Source: Leptolyngbyaceae cyanobacterium clean351
Lineage (GTDB): Bacteria > Cyanobacteriota > Cyanobacteriia > DAIDHW01
Length of the DNA: 64,000 nt
Direction: 5' to 3'
NCBI GenBank assembly: GCA_027451865.1
Contig: DAIDHW010000001.1
Location: 81,798 to 145,797 of the forward strand
The first letter of the stretch is position 1. Each line of letters begins with the position of its first letter. The translations under genes and the position numbers were made by a program. Below, one piece after another: positions 833-39,465 of the stretch. The notes beneath the pieces were generated by a model. It saw only the letters and a list, made by a program, of their open reading frames with translations. It made no database searches and had not been told where the DNA came from.

Positions 833-2329
833 ATGACTACGTCTCTTCCCTGGCAAAACCTCCAGCAACGACTTCTGGAGATTAACGACCTCCAATCCGC
901 TGCGGCCCTACTCCACTGGGACCAGGCCACCTACATGCCCCCCGGGGGGGCCGCGGCTCGGGGCCGCCAGCTGGCCACCCTCCAGCGCCTGGCCCACGAC
1001 CGGCTCACGGACCCGGCCCTGGGGGATTTGCTTGAGCGGACCTGGGACTGGCCCCAAGGTAGCGATGAGGCGGCCCTAGTGCGCCTAGCCCGGCGCCACT
1101 ACCAGCGGGCCCGACGTCTCCCCAACGCCTTTATTGGCGAGCTGGTCAGTCATCAAGCGCACACCTACGCCGCCTGGGCCCAAGCCCGGGCCGAGGATGA
1201 CTTTGCCCTAGTCCAACCCTACCTAGAAAAAACCCTCCGCCTCAGCCGGGACCTGGCTAGCTTTTTTCCCGAGGCTGAGCATCCCCTAGACGCCCTGATT
1301 GAGGAGGAGGACCCTGGTTATTCCTGCCGGGACCTGAAGGCTTTATTCAGCGAGCTGCGGCAGCACCTAGTGCCCCTGTTAGCGGAGATTACCGCTACTC
1401 CCCCCCCGGATGACGCGTGTCTTACGCAGTACTTCCCCGCCGCCGAGCAGCTGGCTTTCAGTCGTCGTCTGGTCGCGCGCCTGGGCTACGACCTAGAGCG
1501 GGGCCGCCAAGACCAGACCCTCCATCCTTTCATGACTAAGTTTTCCCTCGGGGATGTGCGCATTACCACCCGAGTCCGGGAAGATAACCTCGGGGAAGCC
1601 CTCTTTAGCAGCATCCACGAGATGGGCCATGCCCTTTACGAACAGGGGATCGCTCCTCACCTAGAGGGTACTCCCTTAGCAGAAGGCACCTCCTCCGGGA
1701 TGCACGAGAGTCAGTCACGCTTCTGGGAAAACCTCATTGGCCGCAGTTTACCCTTTTGGGAGTGGTGCTACCCCCAGCTGCAGGCAGTCTTTCCCACCCA
1801 ACTAGGCTCGGTTTCCCTGGAGGAATTCTACCGAGCGGTGAATAAGGTCCGCCGTAGTTTGATCCGCACCGATGCTGATGAGGTTAGTTATAACCTGCAC
1901 GTGATGATCCGCTTCAACCTGGAATTGGCTCTAGTGGAAGGGAGCCTAGAGGTTAAGGACCTGCCGGCGGCCTGGAACCACTACTACCAAACCGACCTAG
2001 GCCTGACCCCCCCTACGGACCGGGAGGGGATTCTCCAGGATGTGCACTGGTATGGAGGCCAGATTGGCGGGATGTTCCAGGGCTACACCCTCGGGAACCT
2101 CATCAGCGCCCAACTCTATGAAGCTCTCCAGGCAGACCAACCAGACCTAGGATCCCGGGTGCGCCGGGGAGAATTTGCCCCCATTTCAACCTGGCTGCGC
2201 ACCCACGTCCATCAGCACGGCGCTAAGTACACACCTCAGGAACTCCTACAGCGGGCCACGGGCAGCCCCCTGCGGGTGGAGCCTTTTGTTAACTATCTGC
2301 GCCGTAAGTATGAGGAGATATATAGCTAG
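833..2329 (+). CDS. Carboxypeptidase Taq-type (M32 family) metallopeptidase
   Basis: The HExxH motif 'HEMGHALYEQG', 'HESQSRFWEN' and 'GYDLERGRQDQTLHPF' are M32 hallmarks, and the length is 498 aa. Confidence 0.9.
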   Translation: MTTSLPWQNLQQRLLEINDLQSAAALLHWDQATYMPPGGAAARGRQLATLQRLAHDRLTDPALGDLLERTWDWPQGSDEAALVRLARRHYQRARRLPNAFIGELVSHQAHTYAAWAQARAEDDFALVQPYLEKTLRLSRDLASFFPEAEHPLDALIEEEDPGYSCRDLKALFSELRQHLVPLLAEITATPPPDDACLTQYFPAAEQLAFSRRLVARLGYDLERGRQDQTLHPFMTKFSLGDVRITTRVREDNLGEALFSSIHEMGHALYEQGIAPHLEGTPLAEGTSSGMHESQSRFWENLIGRSLPFWEWCYPQLQAVFPTQLGSVSLEEFYRAVNKVRRSLIRTDADEVSYNLHVMIRFNLELALVEGSLEVKDLPAAWNHYYQTDLGLTPPTDREGILQDVHWYGGQIGGMFQGYTLGNLISAQLYEALQADQPDLGSRVRRGEFAPISTWLRTHVHQHGAKYTPQELLQRATGSPLRVEPFVNYLRRKYEEIYS

Positions 2330-2351
2330 GGGTAGTTACCAACAACTACCC
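2330..2351 (+). terminator. Stem-loop immediately after the M32 stop, without a U-tract
   Basis: The sequence forms a 7-bp stem 'gggtagt' and 'actaccc' (2330-2336 / 2345-2351) with an 8-nt loop. No T-run follows, so this is only a weak intrinsic-terminator candidate. Confidence 0.25.
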
Positions 2352-2563
2352 TGGACAGATTTACACAGCCAAGACCAAACCGTAGTTGAGCACCGTGGAG
2401 GGTGTCAGACCTAGGGTATGTTCACCTTGATAAGAACAAATGTTACTTAAGTGTCGAGGGAGAATATGGCTTGCGGCCGTGTCGGGACAGAGGGAAGGGA
2501 CTAAACCAGGGTCTATCTTAATCTGCCCACGCTGCTTGGAGCCCTCTTGAGAGCCTGAAACCT

Positions 2564-2982
2564 CTACGAACTCGCAGATTTCCCACTATGGCCGATCACG
2601 ATTGAGTGGAGATGAATCCTAATCCCGGAATTGCTGATGTCATCATTCACCATACTTAGAAATTTCTGACGTTCAGAGATTTCTAATTTAGATGTAACTG
2701 TACTAATAAGTCTAATCGCAGTGTCTCTACGACCCGCATCGTAGGTCCGAGCAGCCATCCGAACCACTTCGGCTAACTTAACAAGCTTGGCACTCATAAA
2801 GGTTTCATCCAGTTGTAACTGACATCAGGAATAGCTAAATCTCCGACTCCAGCCCGACAGGCCATGTTGCCAGTAGACCTCCAGCCTCTTAATACAGGAT
2901 CAGCTAGCAACCAGGCTTGATGGCAACTTTGAGCGACCTGGGATTTAGTATAGCACCCATGAATGCCAGAAATAGCACCCAT
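2564..2982 (-). pseudogene. Frameshifted ORF remnant (62-aa and 77-aa pieces in different frames) inside a low-GC non-coding island
   Basis: Two adjacent minus-strand ORFs (2794..2982 and 2564..2797) abut in different frames. The local GC is clearly below the window average. No family was recognised. Confidence 0.3.
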
Positions 2983-2994
2983 GAATGCCAGAAG
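2947..2994. repeat. Tandem direct duplication of about 22 bp ('atagcacccatgaatgccagaa' x2)
   Basis: The sequence reads 'tatagcacccatgaatgccagaaatagcacccatgaatgccagaagcag' directly. It lies in the 3' flank of the pentapeptide-repeat gene. Confidence 0.8.
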
Positions 2995-3071
2995 CAGAAA
3001 ACTACCCGAAAGACCCCACAGGAGGGCATCTCACCGGGCAATGCCTAGGTGCTTGAGTCGGTAAGACACCC

Positions 3072-4292
3072 CTACTCGTGGTGGTCCGGCACCGCTGAGG
3101 CCGGTTGGGTAAGCTTGTTGGGTATCCCCTCACATCCCCCCGGCACCGTCAGGCGAGTCTTGGGGCCCCCCCAGGCACAACAGTAATACCTCTGCTCCTC
3201 CGATAGGTGCTTGACCCCCGTAAAGTCGGCATTCTCCACTACTGCCCCCGTGTGGGCACCAGTAGTGTAGTCGGGGGCTACAGTGCGGCTGCGGGGACTC
3301 GCCTGCTGGACTGAGCCGTAGAACAGCCGCGCCCGGTCCAGGTCCGCCCCCTGGAGGCGGGCGTTGAACAAGACCGTCCGGGCTAGGTTAGCCTTGACTA
3401 GGTCACAGCCGCCGAGGTTTGCCCCCACTAGGTTAGCGTCACTGATATCCGTCCAGCGCAGGTCCGTATGGGCTAAGTCCGCCCCCGCCAACATTACCCG
3501 CAGGTCAATTACCCGCACCCCCTCCTCACGCTCCTCCATGTAACCACCGGTCCCATCTAGGATTGCCCGGCCCAAACGGCGGTCTCGCTTTAGGGGGGTG
3601 AGCAGACCTGAATGGGAGAGGAAGCGGAGGATCTTCGCTTTGCCCTGGGCGTCTACACTACTGAGAATGGCAGCGGTGCGCCCCTCGGCAATGGCCCGCT
3701 CCTGGGGCCAGTCTTCGAGCAGTCCCTGCTCATCTAAGACTAGGTCAGATATCCCCTGAAAATAGGTGTCGATAGTCTGCTGTTGGGTAATCCGATTTTG
3801 CTGGGTAGTCAAATTAGTCTCAATCACGTACTGTCGCCAAGCCACGTACAAGGCCAGCAGGGCAATCATTAACTGCCCAAAGGCCCCGACAATTCCCTCC
3901 CCAAAGGCCCCCACCGCGTCCCAACTGGGGTGGGTGAACCAGTACACCAGGCGGCTAAAATTACCGGTCAGATACACCAAACCCAAGGCCCCGGCGGCTA
4001 CCCCCACCACCCCCATTACCGGCGCTAGCCTGGGGTCGGTAACCAGGGTCACCAGGGCCCGCCACCCCACCGGCAGCAGCATCGGCAAGGAGGCAGCCAG
4101 GGCTAGGCCGGTACCCCCCAGGGTAACCCAGAAATTCTGCCCCCAGATGCCTAACCCCAAGAGCACTACCCCCACGGTGATTACTACTGAAGCCCGGGAA
4201 ATACTCGGCCGGCGCGGCAGGGCTTCGGGGGAGTTATTGGCCAAGAGCATGGCTAGGGGAGTGGGATTAACCGAAGGGGGGTCAACAGTCAT
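3072..4292 (-). CDS. Pentapeptide-repeat protein with an N-terminal multi-pass membrane domain
   Basis: The C-terminal half has tandem A(D/N)LxG pentapeptides ('ADLAHTDLRWTDISDANLVGANLGGCDLVKANLARTVLFNARLQGADLDRARL'). The N-terminal 160 aa are hydrophobic helices. Confidence 0.85.
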   Translation of the reverse strand: MTVDPPSVNPTPLAMLLANNSPEALPRRPSISRASVVITVGVVLLGLGIWGQNFWVTLGGTGLALAASLPMLLPVGWRALVTLVTDPRLAPVMGVVGVAAGALGLVYLTGNFSRLVYWFTHPSWDAVGAFGEGIVGAFGQLMIALLALYVAWRQYVIETNLTTQQNRITQQQTIDTYFQGISDLVLDEQGLLEDWPQERAIAEGRTAAILSSVDAQGKAKILRFLSHSGLLTPLKRDRRLGRAILDGTGGYMEEREEGVRVIDLRVMLAGADLAHTDLRWTDISDANLVGANLGGCDLVKANLARTVLFNARLQGADLDRARLFYGSVQQASPRSRTVAPDYTTGAHTGAVVENADFTGVKHLSEEQRYYCCAWGGPKTRLTVPGGCEGIPNKLTQPASAVPDHHE

Positions 4293-4297
4293 GGAGC

Positions 4298-5065
4298 TTA
4301 GGCCTTGAAAGTAATTAGTAATAGTCCAAACACTACCGCACCAGTCAAGAACCAGGGGTAGGAAGACTCCTGGTGCTCCTGCAACTGTTCTCTAAAGATA
4401 CCCAAGATAATAAAACCCGCCAAGGTAGCCAGGAGCAGATCTGTGACTAACTTATTGGCCGGGGCCCAGGCCGCCCCCATCCCCCCCACTACCACTGCCC
4501 CAGTCAGGACGTAGCGCCCCCAGCGGCGGTAGGGATGGGGGAACTTCTCCTCGAGGAAGTAGTTGTCACCAAACAGGTGCAAGCCCATGGCCACCAGGTA
4601 GGCAGCACTTTTACCTAATCCCAGTTTCAGCTGCCCCGGGATTGTGTAGACGATCAGCAGATTGTAGAGAGCCAACAGGCCGATGTGCACCGGCACCGTA
4701 AACTCAGCCTCGCTTTGTCCTGGCTGCTGCTCGGCCAGGTACTTGGCTAGGTGCTCCAATCCCAGTACCAGTAACAATCCCCCCAGCATGACTAGGTGAT
4801 TCCAGGGGGCTAACCGGGGGTGGGTTTGGTCTAACTTGGGCAGCAGGTACAAGAACAGGTAAGCCACTGCCACCCCGCCCCCTAGGGAGACGGTGATAGT
4901 TTCTAGCCGCAGGCCGTGGTGGGAGTGCTTGAGGGTATGAATCACGTAACTAGAGAGCAGGTGGACTACCACCAGGGCAACGGTAAACCCCAGGAGTATT
5001 AGGTGCTCTTCCCGGGTAAGGGGGAGGTTATTAGCTGCGGCCGCTAGGGGGGTATTAATGACCAC
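4298..5065 (-). CDS. Integral membrane protein of unknown function
   Basis: The 255-aa product has about 7 predicted TM helices and a GTG start 3 bp after the stop of the upstream exchanger gene. It is co-directional with the transporter cluster. Confidence 0.6.
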   Translation of the reverse strand: MVINTPLAAAANNLPLTREEHLILLGFTVALVVVHLLSSYVIHTLKHSHHGLRLETITVSLGGGVAVAYLFLYLLPKLDQTHPRLAPWNHLVMLGGLLLVLGLEHLAKYLAEQQPGQSEAEFTVPVHIGLLALYNLLIVYTIPGQLKLGLGKSAAYLVAMGLHLFGDNYFLEEKFPHPYRRWGRYVLTGAVVVGGMGAAWAPANKLVTDLLLATLAGFIILGIFREQLQEHQESSYPWFLTGAVVFGLLLITFKA

Positions 5066-5068
5066 AGA

Positions 5069-6145
5069 CTAAACCGGCTGAAAGTAGAAGGCTGCCCCCA
5101 GGATGGAGTAGGTCGCGAGCAGCATCACCCCCTCGAGCCAGTTGGAATTCCCATCCAGGCTAATCAGGTTGGCGATCACCACCGCCACCGCCACCGCTAC
5201 CATGTCAAATAGATTAAAACCCAAGTCCATGGGTTGACCGATCGCTTGACCCACCAGCACCAGCAGGGGGGCCACCAGCAGGGCCACCAGCAGGCTCGAA
5301 CCCATGGCCACGCTCACCGACAGGTCCATGTTGTTCTTCATGGCCACCCCTACCGCGGTCACGTACTCCGCCGCCCCCCCCACTAGGGGCAGCAAAATCA
5401 CCCCGGTGAACAAGGGGCTCAGGCCTAGGCCGCTAGTGGCCTCCTCCACTACCCCTACAAAGATCTCCGACTCGTAGGCGACCCCTACCGTGGCCACCGC
5501 CAACACCCCCAACCACAGCCACAGGTTCGGCTTGTGGGCCGCCACCTCCTCCTCCAGGTCTACTACACTCACCTCGTACAGGTAACTGTGGGTGCGCAGG
5601 GAAAATAGCAGGGTCAGGCCGTAAACCAGGATGAGCACCCCCGCCACAAATACCGACAGCTCCGCCACCCCCAAAGGCTCCGCCGGGCCCGGGGCACTGT
5701 TGAGTACCAGGCTCGGCAGGAGGATCGCGATCACCGCTAGGGTCATTAGAGACCCATTCACCCGGGCGACCATGGGCTGAAAAGTCTGCTCCTTGTAGCG
5801 CAGGCCCCCGCAAAACATCGCCAGACCCATGGCTAAAAGTAGATTACTGATAATGGTGCCGGTAATACTGGCCTTGACGATGTCTATTAAGCCCGCCTGC
5901 AGGGCAGCTAGGGCGATAATTAGCTCCGTGGCATTGCCAAACACCGCGTTTAGCAGGCCCCCCACGGTTGGACCCGTGACCACCGCCACCTCTTCCGTAG
6001 CGGTGCTCAACCAGATAGCCAAGGGGACAATTGCTAGGGCCGAGGTGACAAAAACTGCCAGGGACCCCCAGTGCAAAGCTTCAGCAGCGATTGATATGGG
6101 CACAAACACCAGCAAGGCAATAGACAGAAACCGCTTCACACCCAT
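5069..6145 (-). CDS. Ca2+/H+ (cation/proton) antiporter, CaCA/CAX family
   Basis: The 'GNATELIIALAALQAGLIDIVKASITGTIISNLLL' alpha-1 repeat and a second 'GAAEYVTAV' alpha-2 repeat are present. The product is 358 aa. Confidence 0.9.
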   Translation of the reverse strand: MGVKRFLSIALLVFVPISIAAEALHWGSLAVFVTSALAIVPLAIWLSTATEEVAVVTGPTVGGLLNAVFGNATELIIALAALQAGLIDIVKASITGTIISNLLLAMGLAMFCGGLRYKEQTFQPMVARVNGSLMTLAVIAILLPSLVLNSAPGPAEPLGVAELSVFVAGVLILVYGLTLLFSLRTHSYLYEVSVVDLEEEVAAHKPNLWLWLGVLAVATVGVAYESEIFVGVVEEATSGLGLSPLFTGVILLPLVGGAAEYVTAVGVAMKNNMDLSVSVAMGSSLLVALLVAPLLVLVGQAIGQPMDLGFNLFDMVAVAVAVVIANLISLDGNSNWLEGVMLLATYSILGAAFYFQPV

Positions 6146-6217
6146 AGGGAAAACCTGAACAGAGGTTTAGTTTTCCTGAGTTTAATCGATCTGCCCTGGT
6201 TTGCGGCCCGTCACTAA

Positions 6218-6595
6218 TTAGGCCGGACTAAACAGGCTATAGAGCAAAATCGCCAGCACAAATAGGGTAACGACGATGTAGAGCCGGTCCCGCTGTAACA
6301 GGAAAACCCCCGCCGTCAGGGCTACCCGAGCAATGGGTGTAAGGATCAGCATCACTAAACCAAACTGCAATAACCCCCGGCGGTGCCAGGTGAGGGTGTC
6401 ATGGATGATGCCGGGTAGGGTGGTCAAATGGTGACTTTCGCCCCGAAAAATATGGTAGTCCGGTTGTAAGGACCCGTAGCGGGCGAGGTAGACAATGCCC
6501 CCTAAGGCTACTACCCCCCCAGAAACAATCACCCCCCAGCGCAGCAGGGTACCGACGACCAACTCTGTTTTGTGTTCACTCCATGGGGACCTCAT
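6218..6595 (-). CDS. DUF1634-family small membrane protein
   Basis: The 125-aa, 3-4 TM protein sits directly downstream of a TauE/SafE gene. This pairing is characteristic of DUF1634. Confidence 0.6.
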   Translation of the reverse strand: MRSPWSEHKTELVVGTLLRWGVIVSGGVVALGGIVYLARYGSLQPDYHIFRGESHHLTTLPGIIHDTLTWHRRGLLQFGLVMLILTPIARVALTAGVFLLQRDRLYIVVTLFVLAILLYSLFSPA

Positions 6596-6611
6596 AAACC
6601 TCCTATACCCG

Positions 6612-7448
6612 CTAAATGCGGCCGGTGATGCTGTTGATAATCATTTCCGCCGCTAAGACCCCCACTAATAGCCCAAAGACTAGGCGCAGCCACTTAACCT
6701 TCAGGTGGATGAGTACCCGGGCCCCGAGCAGAGAACCAATGAGCACTCCAAGCATCACTGGCATGGAAAGACCCGGGTGAATGTAACCTTCCTTGAGGTA
6801 AGCCCCCGCCCCCGCCGCCGCGGTGACTCCGATCATAAAGTTGCTGGTGGTGGTGGACACCTTAAAGGGGAGGCGCATCATCTGGTCCATGGCTAGGACC
6901 TTGACTGCCCCTGACCCAATTCCTAGCAGGCTAGAAAGGACTCCAGCCAAGAGCATCAGGCCAAATCCCTCCGGCACGTGCTGAACGTGGTATTTCTGGT
7001 CGCCTTCGGGGGTGGGGAAATCCCCATCCAAACGTAGGCGGACCGCTAGGGGGTCTGGGCCTAGGCCCTCGAGGTGGTCTAGGTGTGGTTGGAAAGATAA
7101 GTAAGCAGAGTACAGAAGTACTATACCAAAGATAATCCCGATCACGTGGGTCGGTAGTTTGCTGCCCAGGTAGGCCCCTAGGATGGCCCCACTAGTGGTA
7201 GCTACCTCGAGAAACATCCCCACCCGAATGTTTGTGTAGCCCTCCCGGACGTAGGCGGCCGCTGCCCCAGAGGAGGTGGCGATCACCGAAACTAGGGAGG
7301 CTCCAATGGCGTAGCGCAGGTCAACCCCGAATAGCAAGGTCAACACCGGCACCAAAACTGAACCCCCTCCGAGACCACTGAGGGCACCCAAAAAACCCGC
7401 CAGCAGGGAGACAACCCCCACTGCCAAGGTAAACTCCAAAATATTCAC
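6612..7448 (-). CDS. TauE/SafE (TSUP) family anion exporter
   Basis: The N-terminus 'LLAGFLGALSGLGGGSVLVPVLTLLFGVDLRYAIGASL' and the duplicated 4-TM halves are typical of TSUP. It has a GTG start. Confidence 0.85.
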   Translation of the reverse strand: MNILEFTLAVGVVSLLAGFLGALSGLGGGSVLVPVLTLLFGVDLRYAIGASLVSVIATSSGAAAAYVREGYTNIRVGMFLEVATTSGAILGAYLGSKLPTHVIGIIFGIVLLYSAYLSFQPHLDHLEGLGPDPLAVRLRLDGDFPTPEGDQKYHVQHVPEGFGLMLLAGVLSSLLGIGSGAVKVLAMDQMMRLPFKVSTTTSNFMIGVTAAAGAGAYLKEGYIHPGLSMPVMLGVLIGSLLGARVLIHLKVKWLRLVFGLLVGVLAAEMIINSITGRI

Positions 7449-7474
7449 TGTTAAGAACTCTTAGTGAACACCAC

Positions 7475-8560
7475 TTAACTTATACCCCAGCGGATTACTC
7501 CTAGGGAAGTAATGCTGATCACGATCCAGAGAATTATGCCCTGGAACATGGGCCGCCAACCCACACTCCGCAGGAGGCGACGCGATAAGCTTGTACCAAT
7601 CAAAAACAAAGTCAAAGTCAGACCGCGAGTAGAGACAGTCTCCAGGAGGGGCTCCCAAGCCACTAAGGCAGGTACCAGAGTCCGGGCTACGGAGGCGAGG
7701 ATAAACAAGCCAATAAACCAGGGGATGATGGCGGAACTCTGGCGGCCTAGGGGGGTGGGCTTGGCTGGGGCAGTCAGCTCCTGGGTGTCTGTAAGGGTCA
7801 GTTCGTGCAAGGATTCTAGGATGATGGCAGCGTCGGAGTTCTGCTGACCTCGGGGGCTGGCCTGGGATCTAAACCAGTGACCTGCTAGAAGAGTAACCGG
7901 GATAATCCACAGAGCCCGGGAGAGTTTCACTGCCGTAGCGGTATGTAAAGCCTGAATCCCGTAGGGAGCGGCGGCCCCGACTACACTTGAGATGTCATGG
8001 ATGGCTACCCCTGCCCAGGTGCCGAACTGGTCCTGGGTCAGGTGCAGGGCGTGGCCTATAGCCGGGAAAGTCAACAAGGCGACGGAATTGAGCAGGAATA
8101 CTGTCCCCATGGCCACGGAGATTTCTCCCTCCGCTGCCCCAATGACGGTGCTAACCGCAGCAATGGCGGAACCCCCGCAGATGGCAGTACCAACGGCAAT
8201 TAAAGCCGAAGCCCGGTCGGAAATCTGCAGCCAACGCCCCAGGACGAAGCCGAGGCCCAAGGTTAAGGTAATACTGCCGACCGCCAGGACCGCCCCTTGA
8301 GCCCCAGCCTCTAGGACCTCCTGGAGGTTCATGCTGAAGCCCAATAACACTACTGCCGCCTGCAAGAGGTACTTAGAGCCGACACGGCTGAACCTGGGGA
8401 AGGGATTTTCCTGGAGCAGAGCCAGGATCGTCCCTAGGACAAGGGCGGCGGCCGGGGTGAACCAGGGGGTGAGACTGAGGGCCGCCAGGGCCAGAAATAA
8501 GATCTGACGTTGGAGGGCCCGCTGGGGCCGGGGGGAGGGGAGTTGAGACCGAGTGACCAT
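7475..8560 (-). CDS. YeiH/UPF0324-family putative sulfate exporter membrane protein
   Basis: The 361-aa polytopic membrane protein has a 'Cons_hypoth698'-like organisation. The family assignment was made by eye and is only moderately certain. Confidence 0.6.
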   Translation of the reverse strand: MVTRSQLPSPRPQRALQRQILFLALAALSLTPWFTPAAALVLGTILALLQENPFPRFSRVGSKYLLQAAVVLLGFSMNLQEVLEAGAQGAVLAVGSITLTLGLGFVLGRWLQISDRASALIAVGTAICGGSAIAAVSTVIGAAEGEISVAMGTVFLLNSVALLTFPAIGHALHLTQDQFGTWAGVAIHDISSVVGAAAPYGIQALHTATAVKLSRALWIIPVTLLAGHWFRSQASPRGQQNSDAAIILESLHELTLTDTQELTAPAKPTPLGRQSSAIIPWFIGLFILASVARTLVPALVAWEPLLETVSTRGLTLTLFLIGTSLSRRLLRSVGWRPMFQGIILWIVISITSLGVIRWGIS

Positions 8561-35427: not shown

Positions 35428-36324
35428 CTAGGAGTCCCCAAAACTAATCTGTTCAGAAATGTAGTCAGGGGGCTCTACATGGATTATTACCCGGGCTGGA
35501 CCGTACTGCTCTTCGATTAAGGCTTCTACCTGTTCGGTGATCTCGTGGGCACTGGGCACATCTGTAGGAACGACGATCAGGTGCATCTCCACAAACACTT
35601 GCCGGCCGACGATGCCGCGGGAAGCAATCTCATGACAGTTAAGGACCCCCGGCACCCCCATAGCTAGGGCATAGATGGCTTCCGGGGCAATGGCCATCTG
35701 GTCTACCAGCCAGGGCAAGCTAGATTCGACTACCTCCCAACCACTCCAGAACACCAGCAGCCCTACGGGGAAAGCCAACCACGCGTCTATCCAGGGATAA
35801 CCTAGATGCACCCCAATTAGCCCGGCAATGACCACGATGGTAACCCACAGGTCACTGAGGTTGTGCCGGGCATCGGCTAGGAGCAGGGGGCTTTTGAGAC
35901 GCTCTCCGACCCGCCGCTCGAGTAGGGAAACGGCAGTGTAACCCCCTACAATCAGTAACATCCCCCCTAGAACTCCCAAGGGAATGGATACTGTCTGGCT
36001 ATGGTTAGTGATCCGCTCCACCGCCCCCTGAAAGATCTCAAAGCAGGCAATTCCCAAGAAGACAGCGATGCCCAAAGTACCGACAGCCTCAAACTTCTGA
36101 TGGCCGTAGGGATGGTCCCGGTCCGGCTCGGGGGCTGCCAACTGATGGGTAACTAGGGCAAGTAGATTACTAGAGACATCGGTGACGCTATGGAGAGCTT
36201 CCGCCAGCAGACTCAAGGACCCTGTCCACCAGCCCATGGCTGCCTTCAGAGCTGCCACCAATACATTGAAGACTAAGGTAAACATTAGCACCCGCTGCAC
36301 CCGGGAGCGAGAAGAGATGGTCAT
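35428..36324 (-). CDS. Cation diffusion facilitator (CDF) divalent-metal efflux transporter
   Basis: It has six TMS, with HxxxD metal sites in TM2 ('HSVTD') and TM5 ('HNLSD'), and a cytoplasmic CTD. The start ATG overlaps the upstream large-ORF stop (ATGA). Confidence 0.85.
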   Translation of the reverse strand: MTISSRSRVQRVLMFTLVFNVLVAALKAAMGWWTGSLSLLAEALHSVTDVSSNLLALVTHQLAAPEPDRDHPYGHQKFEAVGTLGIAVFLGIACFEIFQGAVERITNHSQTVSIPLGVLGGMLLIVGGYTAVSLLERRVGERLKSPLLLADARHNLSDLWVTIVVIAGLIGVHLGYPWIDAWLAFPVGLLVFWSGWEVVESSLPWLVDQMAIAPEAIYALAMGVPGVLNCHEIASRGIVGRQVFVEMHLIVVPTDVPSAHEITEQVEALIEEQYGPARVIIHVEPPDYISEQISFGDS

Positions 36325-39300
36325 GAACCTCTCCGGTGAAGTACTTGGGAAATATGCATCAGAACCGCAGGATAGCTCAACACAATCGTACCGGCAGCGG
36401 TGCCGTGGAGAAATTCTACCTCGCCCACTGCTCCGATTGTAGAGGGAGATACCCAGGGGAAAGGGTCTAGGACTGGCCCAGGTTTTTGGGCCTCGAGGAA
36501 GTGTACCCCCCGTAACATAGCCAAAATACAAGGGCGGACCGGTGAGGTGCCTTCCGGGTCAAGGAGGTGGCGGCGGGGTCGCTCGGTGTTATTCAAGTTA
36601 CCGAGTTGTTGGTCATCTACCCAGGAATACATGCAAAATCCCGACTGGGGCCGGCCGCTCTCCTCCGCCACGTGCAACGTGGCAAAGCTATAGATGGGGA
36701 TGACTCCTGGCCCGGGGCGCCCACCAAGCAGCGCCCCGTGATCAAGGGTTGAGGGGACCTCGAAGGCAGCCTGGGGGGAGGTCCGCCGGTGTAAACGGGT
36801 GACGGGAAAAACATCCCGCAGCAGAGGGTAAATTACTAACCCAGGGAAGGCTTGGTAAACTTCCCGCAGAAATTGGAGTGGGAAGGGGGATAGACCCAGG
36901 CGCCGTCCTTCCCGCCGGGTGTGGGCTAACAGCATGATGTGCTCGCAACCGAGGGAAGCCAGCCGGGAGATTTCTTCCTTGACCAATCTCTGGGTCTGCA
37001 AACCGGCCTGGCCTTCCGTCAGATCAATACCACGGTGTTCCCGCTGCAAACGGTACCCAGGCCAAGGGGTGTCGATGGCCGTGGCGCTGTAGCTTTGGGT
37101 ACAACAGAGGCAGTTTTCCTCCCCGTGACTGGCTTGGCCCAATTCATCACAGGGACGGTAGGCATAGGAGACCAGACCTAACTTGGCCAGGTGGGGTAAC
37201 GAACCGGTACTGATCCCCAAGGGAAAGGCACAGGCTAAGGCTTGGAAGGCACCACCCTTGACGTACTTGGTGGTAGGCTTGCGGGGGTCTAGGTTGTCGA
37301 TCATCACCCCTTGGCAAAAGGTGGGCTGCTCTTGGGCCAGAGCTGCACTAATGGCCTTAGCAGCTGCGTAGACGTAGTCAGCGCCTCCCCCTGGGGCCGG
37401 CTGGCCTTGTGCCTGAAACCGCAGCATCAGTAGTGTCCAGGTCTGCGCCTTGAGGGTTAGGTGGGCCCGCAGGCAGTCTAGACAGGTGTAAACCAGCACG
37501 GTAAAGGCGGTAATTGCCACTGCGTGGGCTTGAGCCCTTTGGCGGTCCTCCTCCTGGGGCTGAGAGCGGGTCAGGTAGCGGTAGTCGTACTCCACCCGCA
37601 CCGCCCCCGGTAGGAGCCAGTCCCGGGTGACCAGCGGGAGGTTGCTGGGCACCCAACCTACCTGCAAAAACTGGGGGGTGGGAAGGCGTTGAATCTGCAG
37701 CTGGAGGGGGGGGCCCTCTGGTACTAGATCGTATTCGGCGATCCGGGTGACCACCTTGATGGCAAACAAGAGGTGTTGGTCCTCTGGCCGGCTACGAATT
37801 TGTACCTGTCTAAGCCACTCGCTGGGGCTATGGGTGGGATTGGTAGCTTGGATCAGTAGGTCCTTAGTGCCAGGCTCGGCCCCCTCCAGGCGACTCCAGT
37901 TGACTATCCCCCTTTGAACACAGATGAATTGCTCCCGGACCTGGGTCCTAGTCTGGGCGACAATCTGCCGGCCTTTAGTCCGTAACACTTCCACTAGGGC
38001 TCGGGCAATGGTGTTCACTAGTCCCGCTTGCTGGCGCAAGTCTGCTAGCAGTTCCCTCACGAGTCCCCGGCCTTCAGTTTTCAGCCTGTCTAGGAGTTGG
38101 GTGAGGTCCTGGTCTAGGGAACCCCCGCCCCTGGGTAAAGCCAAGGTTAAGAATACTAGTTGAGCTAGGGAGGATTCTAGGTAGGGGACCTTGCCCGAGT
38201 CCTCTAGGAGGGCGGTCTTGATTTTTGCCAGCCGCTCGAGAAAGGTACTTTGACCACTATCTGGGTTATTGCCATTGACCCGAAATCGATAACTGACCTC
38301 CCGCTCCACTCCCAGGGCTTGGAAGCTGAACATCTGGGCCTGAGGTTCAATCCACACCGGCAGACAATAGGAGAATCCCACCTGGTCCACTTGAGACCAC
38401 AGGGAGAAATGCCCCCGCAACCCGTATTGGGGAGACATTTCCATCTCTGGCTCACCCTGTTGGACTAGGTTAAATAAACCCAGTACTCGAGTTATGTAAC
38501 TTGAGAGGGCCTGATGGGCAGTACAGGCGTTAGCAGGGATATTCCCAGCCAGATTCTCCATAATCTGGTTGCCGATCCGCAGGCGGATTCGACCTAGGAC
38601 TTGTTCCTCGAGGAAGCGCCAAAAACTAGATAACTGACTTGTGGGGTCGTCCTGTTGCACCCCTAGGCTGGCGCAGGCCCGGTCCACCAGCTCTGGCTCA
38701 CAGTCTCTCCCCTGCTCAAGGTGGTGACCGATCGCACGCACCATTGCCGGAAAGTGGTCCCTAGTTTCGACCTGTTCGCGGGCAGTGATCAGTCTGGCTA
38801 ATCCGGCTTGACTTGCACCAGCGGCAGTCTGCAGTTTCAGGGGTGTGAGATTGACCGGTTGGGCCACCGGGAAGCGGTAGGCCAGCCTCAACCGAGTGGC
38901 TAAAGCGCGCAGCTGATCCCCCTCCTGCAACAGGGGAGTTGGGAGGGTGGGCAAGGCGGCGGTTAGTTCCTGGTCAATGGCGGCCCTGAGACGGTCTAGA
39001 GCCCTAGGCAGCCTCTCCTGGTTACCGGGAGGCAGGGTAGCACCCATCTGGCAGCGGGAGCGGGGGGCCGGCCGGGGAAAATTGACGATAAAGGGGTGGC
39101 CCTCACCGGGGTCAGTCAGGGTTTTGAAGTCTGGGTGCTGAAACAGTAGGGCGAAGACCTTGTCAGTAGTCAGACGGAGATGCTGATCACCGGTTGAGCA
39201 TAGACTGCCAGGGGGGGCTGTCTGCAGAACCTCCCCTAGTAGCTCCACTAATCGAGCTAAGTTCAGGGCCGGCCGGGCAACCTTGGGTCGTAGCTGGGCA

Positions 39301-39344
39301 CCTCCAGTTTGAAAGTTTGTCAAGGAACTCCCCTCTCCAGGCAA
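36321..39344 (-). CDS. Large (1007 aa) protein of unknown function. Its C-terminal region has PIWI-domain-like motifs (see findings)
   Basis: A long ORF with host-typical codon usage, no Walker motifs and no TM segments. Near the C-terminus there is an 'HTRREG' site and a block 'IPIYSFATLHVAEESGRPQSGFCMYSWVDDQQL'. This block resembles the Argonaute PIWI '[27 protein letters not shown]' region. The start is uncertain (TTG in the ORF track). Confidence 0.8.
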   Translation of the reverse strand: MPGEGSSLTNFQTGGAQLRPKVARPALNLARLVELLGEVLQTAPPGSLCSTGDQHLRLTTDKVFALLFQHPDFKTLTDPGEGHPFIVNFPRPAPRSRCQMGATLPPGNQERLPRALDRLRAAIDQELTAALPTLPTPLLQEGDQLRALATRLRLAYRFPVAQPVNLTPLKLQTAAGASQAGLARLITAREQVETRDHFPAMVRAIGHHLEQGRDCEPELVDRACASLGVQQDDPTSQLSSFWRFLEEQVLGRIRLRIGNQIMENLAGNIPANACTAHQALSSYITRVLGLFNLVQQGEPEMEMSPQYGLRGHFSLWSQVDQVGFSYCLPVWIEPQAQMFSFQALGVEREVSYRFRVNGNNPDSGQSTFLERLAKIKTALLEDSGKVPYLESSLAQLVFLTLALPRGGGSLDQDLTQLLDRLKTEGRGLVRELLADLRQQAGLVNTIARALVEVLRTKGRQIVAQTRTQVREQFICVQRGIVNWSRLEGAEPGTKDLLIQATNPTHSPSEWLRQVQIRSRPEDQHLLFAIKVVTRIAEYDLVPEGPPLQLQIQRLPTPQFLQVGWVPSNLPLVTRDWLLPGAVRVEYDYRYLTRSQPQEEDRQRAQAHAVAITAFTVLVYTCLDCLRAHLTLKAQTWTLLMLRFQAQGQPAPGGGADYVYAAAKAISAALAQEQPTFCQGVMIDNLDPRKPTTKYVKGGAFQALACAFPLGISTGSLPHLAKLGLVSYAYRPCDELGQASHGEENCLCCTQSYSATAIDTPWPGYRLQREHRGIDLTEGQAGLQTQRLVKEEISRLASLGCEHIMLLAHTRREGRRLGLSPFPLQFLREVYQAFPGLVIYPLLRDVFPVTRLHRRTSPQAAFEVPSTLDHGALLGGRPGPGVIPIYSFATLHVAEESGRPQSGFCMYSWVDDQQLGNLNNTERPRRHLLDPEGTSPVRPCILAMLRGVHFLEAQKPGPVLDPFPWVSPSTIGAVGEVEFLHGTAAGTIVLSYPAVLMHISQVLHRRGS

Positions 39345-39465
39345 AATTTAGTCAACCTAAGCTATCAGTCTGGTGATTAACCCGGGCTGGTAGTTTATTA
39401 TAACTATTATTAGGACTACGGGGTGAATTAGTCTGGGTCGGAATTTGGACATCCCGCCCTGGAAG

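Follow-up and report, generated by a model that had tools for sequence, protein, structure and literature searches.

A divergent Argonaute-like protein from a cyanobacterium, probably the solo copy of a two-gene module with a helicase-like partner

Among the bacterial systems in which an Argonaute-like protein is paired with a helicase, DdmDE of Vibrio cholerae and ApsAB of E. coli ST38 are plasmid-elimination systems; this activity has been shown only recently, and such systems shape the spread of resistance genes. The MID domain of ApsB carries the motif Y-x3-K...QG...K, the protein was reported to be without an RNase H-type PIWI fold, and ApsAB-like systems have been reported in cyanobacteria (PMC11096173). 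The pPIWI-RE proteins are encoded in triads with the strict gene order restriction endonuclease (REase)-DinG-pPIWI-RE, stand-alone genes are also known, and the proteins are described as having an extra helix, as well as an Arg and a Glu that are absolutely conserved on an extension of the PIWI beta-sheet (Burroughs et al., 2013; PMC3702460). The inactive prokaryotic Argonautes (pAgos), which comprise the long-B pAgos, the Ago subunits of the short systems SPARTA, SPARSA and SPARDA, and AfPiwi, are likewise among the closest known systems. Here, a stretch of 64,000 nucleotides (64 kb) from Leptolyngbyaceae cyanobacterium clean351 (contig DAIDHW010000001.1, positions 81,798 to 145,797), hereafter the window, was analysed with regard to one of its genes, named gene A. 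It was found that gene A probably encodes a highly divergent protein of the Argonaute/PIWI superfamily and belongs to a two-gene module, A-B, in which B is helicase-like, the copy in the window being solo and most likely either left over or repurposed.

The gene was recognised from a minus-strand open reading frame (ORF) at 36321..39344, which has 1007 codons when counted from the first TTG and which the initial annotation had taken as an orphan protein of 1007 amino acids. The frame does exist at these coordinates, but the TTG eight codons in is the start both of the database protein P0001 and of the family alignment, and counted from there the gene spans 36321..39323 of the minus strand and encodes 1000 amino acids; the residue numbers used throughout refer to this 1000-residue protein. 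Nor is it an orphan. When 5.8 billion proteins were searched by word index, 11 homologous clusters emerged, all cyanobacterial and with 33-43% identity to the gene A protein, and the profile made from these 11 clusters was used in an exhaustive HMMER search of 1.84 billion cluster representatives, in which 305 representatives were found at E<=1e-3 and 145 at E<=1e-30. About 60 of these representatives are full-length, with 1000-1180 amino acids, the size of the family proteins being put at about 1000-1150, and an alignment of 63 full-length members served for the conservation counts and for the final structure model. When compared with the gene A protein, the family hidden Markov model aligned over positions 4-1057 with 1396 bits.

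The family is widespread. A scan of the GTDB species-representative genomes confirmed 107 gene A loci, the best 80 of which were kept; these come from Nostocales, other cyanobacteria, Methylococcales, Chromatiales, Burkholderiales and Rhodocyclales, and further ones from metagenome-assembled genomes (MAGs) labelled Rhizobium, Acidobacteriota and Actinomycetota. Complete modules are found, for example, in Nostoc punctiforme and Methylomonas. An A-B pair is present on a 154-kb Acinetobacter plasmid (NZ_CP094644), and a gene A homologue was found on a 1.6-Mb Cupriavidus replicon of the plasmid collection; no match was obtained in the phage genome collection, nor in IMG/VR when searched with gene B patterns. 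The protein of the window forms a long branch, with about 40% identity to cyanobacterial members that share 50-90% with one another, and no relative above 50% identity is present among the approximately 15 billion proteins behind the profile search. Two assemblies were seen to carry two distinct A-B modules each, namely Nostoc ‘Peltigera membranacea cyanobiont’ 232 (loci L022 and L031) and the Rhodocyclaceae MAG ACC004 (L052 and L068).

The gene A protein gave zero matches in the Pfam, PADLOC and NCBIfam scans, and hmmscan of 32 diverse members against Pfam gave no Piwi, pPIWI_RE or CHAT model at E<=0.1, so that the profile search against Pfam Piwi and pPIWI_RE suggested with the initial annotation found no match, either for the window protein or for the other members tested. 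The family is without a model in the existing domain and defence databases, and no account of it was found in the searchable literature, which leaves out most papers of subscription journals. Its named members are all called ‘hypothetical protein’, except for one that UniRef calls ‘CHAT domain-containing protein’ (P0006; L005, 20810-23186). The possibility of a CHAT/caspase-like protease was considered and rejected, as no CHAT model matched in the Pfam scan and no His-Cys dyad with a caspase fold was recognised; a genuine TPR-CHAT protein is encoded approximately 7 kb downstream in the genome of this labelled homologue.

The relationship to Argonautes was revealed through structure prediction with AlphaFold2 (AF2). 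The model made from 11 sequences was poor, with a predicted local distance difference test (pLDDT) value of 59, and its Foldseek matches, which served as an independent pointer, were already nearly all Argonautes. The model made from 63 sequences reached a mean pLDDT of 90.3 and a predicted template modelling score (pTM) of 0.91, and its Foldseek search against the PDB returned 53 matches at E<=1e-3; the top 50 consisted of 49 Argonaute/PIWI entries, including Hili, TtAgo, hAgo1-4, KpAgo, Mili and PliAgo, and one Med13 entry from yeast. The Foldseek scores were modest and the TM-scores low, from 0.17 to 0.37, and for this reason the kinship must be very remote, on par with that of Med13. Since the list of matches is near-exclusive and the two domains are covered jointly, the predicted model is nevertheless clearly read as having a C-terminal lobe made of a MID-like Rossmann domain with an RNase H-fold PIWI domain straight after it. 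A structure model with a structure search had been named as a check in the initial annotation, which proposed a divergent PIWI protein: this proposal is upheld at the level of the fold, but not in most of its motif details. The resulting layout of the gene is as follows.

36321..39323, minus strand: gene A (P0001), Argonaute-like, 1000 amino acids; from the ORF list, the translation, the database protein and the family alignment
37443..39323, minus strand: N-terminal half, residues 1-627, predicted as mostly helical with three beta-sheets and with no assigned domain; from the AF2 model
38262..38300, minus strand: motif EVSYRFRVNGNNP, residues 342-354, in the N-terminal half; from the family alignment
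37206..37442, minus strand: predicted MID-like Rossmann-type domain, residues 628-706, which holds R635, Y652, K656, Q671-G672 and K689; from the AF2 model
36324..37190, minus strand: predicted PIWI-like RNase H-fold domain, residues 712-1000; from the AF2 model, the Argonaute/PIWI matches and the column conservation
36639..36653, minus strand: R891-P-Q-S-G loop preceding strand 893-903; from the family conservation

In the AF2 model, residues 628-706 form a beta-alpha-beta-alpha-beta unit, and the PIWI-like domain is built from a three-strand meander (714-770), helices (771-790), a strand (795-800) and further elements on to residue 995, with R723-P724, H801, R891-P-Q-S-G, Y899, H941 and E944 as its key residues. 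The strongest conserved stretch across the family lies outside both domains: it is the EVSYRFRVNGNNP block (R-E-V-S-Y-R-F-R-x-N-G-x-x-P, residues 341-354), in which G351 is found in 63/63 members, R341, Y345 and N350 in at least 90%, and R346 and F347 in at least 80%.

In the MID domains of Argonautes, the guide 5' phosphate is held in a pocket made by Y-K-Q-K, where Arg can replace the Tyr and to which PIWI adds a basic residue. The MID-like region of the family conserves R635 (60/63), Y652 (57/63) and Q671-G672 (63/63); residue 656 is Q, H or K, a basic R or K is found at 688-690, and R723 is present in 63/63 members. Together with R635 and R723, Y652, residue 656, Q671-G672 and the basic residue at 688-690 form the pattern Y-x3-[QHK]...QG...[RK], which recalls the Argonaute pocket, with its residues in the expected order, and, with R/K891 (57/63) as the candidate basic residue from the PIWI-like domain, may represent a putative guide pocket. 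In hAgo2, the Arg-Pro of ‘TSRPSHY’ contacts the guide 5' phosphate through R812; by secondary-structure register with this residue, R891-P892 is proposed as the equivalent of the Argonaute S-R-P segment that touches the guide.

All four motif strings on which the initial annotation had relied are present, at residues 645-652, 672-680, 796-808 and 875-907, and the alignment gives several of them another meaning. The strings ‘GGGADYVY’ and ‘GVMIDNLDP’, which had been offered for the first catalytic Asp, both fall in the MID-like domain and not on the first PIWI strand, where no Asp is conserved above 70% (D726 in 43/63). The second motif holds a conserved strand, ‘IMLLAH’, the fourth of the RNase H fold; in Argonautes the second catalytic Asp sits on this strand, but here it ends with a His (46/63) and no catalytic Asp, and the ‘RE’ (R804 E805) is specific to the window copy, the other members having F or Y and G. 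From the third motif, the strand-loop-strand ‘IPIYSFATL...RPQSGFCMY’ is found family-wide, with P876, Y878, T882, R/K891, P892, Q893, S894, G895 and Y899 conserved (R/K891 57/63, P 54, Q 58, S 60, G 54 and Y899 62/63), whereas ‘W.DD’ is not conserved across the 63 members and T882/L883 stand where the fourth catalytic residue would be. Of the features compared across the 63 members, Y652, Q671-G672 and RPQSG...Y hold, while ‘RE’, ‘W.DD’ and the catalytic acids do not. Conservation of acidic and His residues is seen at D726, D837, E855, H941 (63/63), E944 and E946 (61/63), and no DEDX catalytic tetrad is conserved in the 63-member alignment; judged from the sequences, this absence is consistent with an inactive Argonaute and still compatible with membership of the superfamily.

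The second line of evidence is the partner gene. In 85/85 other loci with downstream DNA, gene B is located directly 3' of gene A on the same strand, and the stop codon of A and the start codon of B frequently overlap. The remark in the initial annotation that no helicase or nuclease gene is adjacent holds for the window, but elsewhere the helicase-like B follows downstream, which is not of DinG type and is not accompanied by a conserved REase gene. The product of B has approximately 1290 amino acids and resembles superfamily 2 (SF2) helicases. Its invariant motifs are GNPGIGKTTA (Walker A), MVDE, MTNS, SSGARG and QLIYRGRG. B matches the Helicase_C model of Pfam, with a score that in most tested members reaches or approaches the gathering threshold, and the P-loop matches are weak; no DinG-type model was matched in Pfam and no Cys cluster is conserved between Walker A and B. 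About 430 N-terminal and about 350 C-terminal residues are without an assigned domain. B is better conserved than A, as the cyanobacterial and proteobacterial proteins share approximately 46% identity for B and approximately 30% for A.

Within the N-terminal domain of B (residues ~150-260; for example L005, 13186-17070), the residues D155, E182, K247, K251 and Q254-x3-Y258 are conserved. As a speculation, this pattern faintly recalls the PD-(D/E)xK nucleases of RecB/Cas4 type, a likeness without profile support.

Apart from synteny within Nostoc, no third gene is conserved beside A-B. The 79 immediate neighbour ORFs belong to 90 Pfam families, none of them in more than three ORFs, and show no dominant partner. 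Some neighbours are defence or mobile genes, such as DruE-like helicases, GajB-like UvrD, BrxH-like helicases, TnpB, methylases, RepB, Abi, HicAB and HipA/Fic; an aggregate PADLOC scan of the neighbours gave two DruE-type matches, with the loci not named. Horizontal transfer is suggested by the patchy occurrence of the module among phyla and by the variety of its genomic surroundings, and repeated loss is indicated by several genomes with a split A or B. A-B therefore behaves as a horizontally mobile two-gene module, and this fits a role in defence or plasmid control.

Several individual loci deserve description. In the Nodosilinea/Leptolyngbya loci L005 (624-9736), L006 (1-7739) and L014 (4-7844), A-B is found directly 3' of a DruE/YprA-type helicase of about 1900 amino acids (DEAD, Helicase_C and MZB) and a GajB-like UvrD, and in L005 a PDC-M57A/DUF6884 gene stands between these helicases and A-B. 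The helicase neighbours look like a Druantia- or ARMADA-like system, and because such a system adjoins, these loci can be taken as a defence island or possibly as a larger composite system. A similarly large upstream ORF is present in L029 (Phormidium, 2289-7853) and L065 (Vasconcelosia, 2501-7852). In L016, L032, L036, L041, L048, L056, L068 and L077, frameshifts or stop codons leave A or B as two or three separate ORFs, and L032 has an apparent insertion within B.

In the window, by contrast with the 85 other loci, gene A stands alone: tblastn and hmmsearch found neither B nor a remnant of B within the 64 kb. The gene A protein retains 68 of the 72 columns that are at least 80% conserved (94%), and it is without 7 of the 32 conserved charged columns (E333S, E659S, K/R669F, K/R688V, K/R743Q, K/R811L and E946Q), as many losses as in the most remote members of the family. 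Three of the seven (acidic 659, basic 669 and basic 688) sit in the putative guide pocket, and Gln946 is unique to the window copy among the 63 sequences, E being found in 61/63. Because conserved charged residues have been lost, including those three and the near-invariant E946, the gene is most likely left over or repurposed and, if no B gene is present in another part of the genome, unable to do the work of a complete module. That it represents a solo copy whose original function has been relaxed or changed is held with moderate confidence. In the E. coli record CP061233 (L091, 2298-7004), apsB is intact and apsA is in three ORFs, so that here, too, an Argonaute-like gene has persisted longer than the helicase gene paired with it.

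The gene lies in a same-strand run with genes for a triosephosphate isomerase and a UreE-like protein before it, and a CDF cation-efflux protein, a periplasmic binding protein, UPF0014, UbiA and a photolyase after it. Its GC content of 58.8%, and of 64.1% at third codon positions, is the same as that of the neighbouring genes. It is separated from the ureE-like gene by the following element.

39324..39465, minus strand: A+T-rich spacer of 142 nt between the ureE-like gene and gene A; from direct reading of the sequence

A TATAAT hexamer lies within the spacer, and immediately 5' of the TTG start stands GGAGAGGGGAG, which is Shine-Dalgarno-like; since the scan of this spacer for a consensus promoter gave no complete sigma-70 match, a separate promoter for gene A is only hinted at. 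At the other end, the longest ORF of the CDF cation-efflux gene (35428-36531, minus strand) shares approximately 210 nt with the 3' end of gene A; its Pfam match begins only at ORF residue 84, so that its true start is probably near the gene A stop, and the two genes may be co-transcribed. For the remainder of the window, the Rfam scan found tRNA alone; the nine window proteins looked up exactly, and the gene A protein too, are each a singleton cluster at 90% identity, which marks the organism as an isolated lineage in current databases; and the glutamate synthase of 1542 amino acids, which had no exact entry in that collection, is presumably of the ferredoxin-dependent type. This presumed type and the closest gene A homologues suggest a cyanobacterial affinity.

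As to how a complete module might work, DdmDE, ApsAB and pPIWI-RE/DinG offer the analogy. The fold, the family, the linkage of A with B and the absence of B from the window are shown by the analysis; guide binding, a role in defence and the functional state of the window copy are inferred. The MID/PIWI pocket of A would hold the 5' end of a short nucleic-acid guide, and with this guide A would recognise complementary foreign DNA or RNA without slicing it; A would then recruit or activate B, which might unwind and possibly degrade the target. A bolder proposal, which is possible although we would hesitate to favour it, is that A-B is an undescribed and widespread class of Argonaute-like/helicase immune or plasmid-control systems, unrelated in sequence to DdmDE, ApsAB and pPIWI-RE, which would imply that a PIWI-fold sensor was joined to a helicase effector independently of those systems. 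Under the same proposal, the sensor kept in the window, alone, intact and ameliorated in a run of housekeeping genes, would have taken a helicase-independent role in the host, for example guide-directed binding that regulates host or mobile DNA. A-B is common in Nostoc, other cyanobacteria, methanotrophs and purple sulfur bacteria, and the domain and defence databases miss the family entirely; with it, the PIWI fold is seen to include sequences so divergent that structure prediction alone can reach them. The solo copy of the window, in turn, is a natural test of the role, or the decay, of an Argonaute-like sensor after the loss of its effector.

Some observations weigh against the reading of gene A as a left-over or repurposed Argonaute-like member of a helicase module. 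No sequence or profile method ties its protein to any Argonaute, and the profiles from 11 and from 63 sequences gave noise only against the PDB sequences; the equivalences of the pocket and of the catalytic site were assigned by secondary-structure register. Pfam detects no nuclease family in B, and defence or mobile genes are present in only part of the A-B neighbourhoods. In one alternative explanation, the Argonaute likeness would be a generic pair of Rossmann-like and RNase H-like domains or a modelling artefact, and the protein would have an unrelated function, for example as a CHAT protease or in metal homeostasis, given its UreE and cation-efflux neighbours. The low TM-scores leave some room for this explanation, which is decidedly unlikely in view of a match list made almost only of Argonaute/PIWI entries. 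The intact frame of 1000 codons also speaks against simple decay, and B could be encoded elsewhere in the genome, the search for it having covered 64 kb of a contig of at least 1.2 Mb. In that case gene A would be fully functional and its partner would act in trans, an explanation to which the 94% of strongly conserved columns kept, the ameliorated composition and an A+T-rich upstream spacer with TATAAT and a Shine-Dalgarno-like sequence would lend themselves. A and B are, however, adjacent wherever else they were examined (85/85), and the stop of one often overlaps the start of the other, from which split A/B modules appear to be very rare; among the best 120 of 464 B homologues, none is located on a contig as long as that of the window (1,202,744 bp); and the window copy has lost conserved charged residues, E946 among them; an unimpaired system in trans is thus unlikely.

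Two further explanations would place the family within known systems, and they were weighed by comparison with those systems. The initial annotation had suggested a true member of pPIWI-RE, which would have a DinG helicase and a REase as partners for restriction directed by RNA/DNA hybrids. Both are divergent bacterial PIWI proteins of similar size, around 1000 amino acids, with a large non-PAZ N-terminal region and a helicase partner, a patchy spread that fits horizontal transfer, and occasional stand-alone copies, which for pPIWI-RE are also on record (PMC3702460); moreover, helices 771-790, straight after the three-strand meander, resemble the extra helix of pPIWI-RE. Yet at E<=0.1 none of 33 members matches Piwi in Pfam or the models that define pPIWI_RE (DUF3893/RNaseH_pPIWI_RE and, for the N-terminal region, DUF3962), NCBIfam gives nothing for the window protein, and the ‘RE’ that had inspired the suggestion is F/Y-G in the family; other conserved R/E pairs, such as R843 and E855, would be candidates for the pair on the sheet extension. 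The gene order is A and then its helicase, against REase-DinG-pPIWI-RE, no REase gene is conserved nearby, and B, with Helicase_C and no Cys cluster between Walker A and B, differs from DinG. Membership in pPIWI-RE is accordingly very improbable. The other explanation sees in the family a distant branch of DdmDE/ApsAB, A being of ApsB or DdmE type and B a helicase-nuclease of DdmD or ApsA type, with the same plasmid elimination. The logic of the pairing is the same, a large protein of SF2 helicase type beside one that is Argonaute-like, as would be the proposed division of labour between guide-directed recognition and helicase action; the Y-x3-K...QG...K motif of ApsB resembles Y652-x3-K/Q...Q671-G672...R723; and ApsAB-like systems occur in cyanobacteria, while A-B is found on plasmids and beside defence genes. 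Despite this, hhalign of A with a full-length ApsB taken from the E. coli record gave a probability of 0.5% with the single sequence and 0.35% with a 21-sequence ApsB alignment, that of B with ApsA gave 0.4%, and DdmE is not among the top Foldseek matches of the gene A model. The architecture of B is different and the gene order is reversed, with the DdmD/ApsA-type helicase upstream and bearing a C-terminal PD-(D/E)xK nuclease, and B downstream with no nuclease family detected; the gene A protein, in addition, keeps the RNase H-type PIWI fold that ApsB is reported to be without. Such a common branch is therefore quite unlikely. Nostoc sp. LPT (L032) was seen to carry A-B together with an ApsAB-like pair of unrelated sequence (Supplementary Data 7/8, PMC11096173), so that two Argonaute-like/helicase systems coexist in one genome.

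With the window protein read as a highly divergent Argonaute/PIWI-superfamily member of the A-B module, the remaining relatives differ as well. From the inactive pAgos it is distinguished by the lack of sequence or profile similarity and by approximately 630 additional N-terminal residues with no recognised APAZ or PAZ; the partner of A is an SF2 helicase-like ATPase, and not TIR, SIR2, DREN or another nuclease effector. Med13, the MedPIWI protein of the Mediator kinase module, is eukaryotic, belongs to a transcription complex and has no helicase partner. Beside DdmDE and ApsAB, the A-B family would be a third, sequence-unrelated lineage of modules that join an Argonaute-like protein to a helicase.

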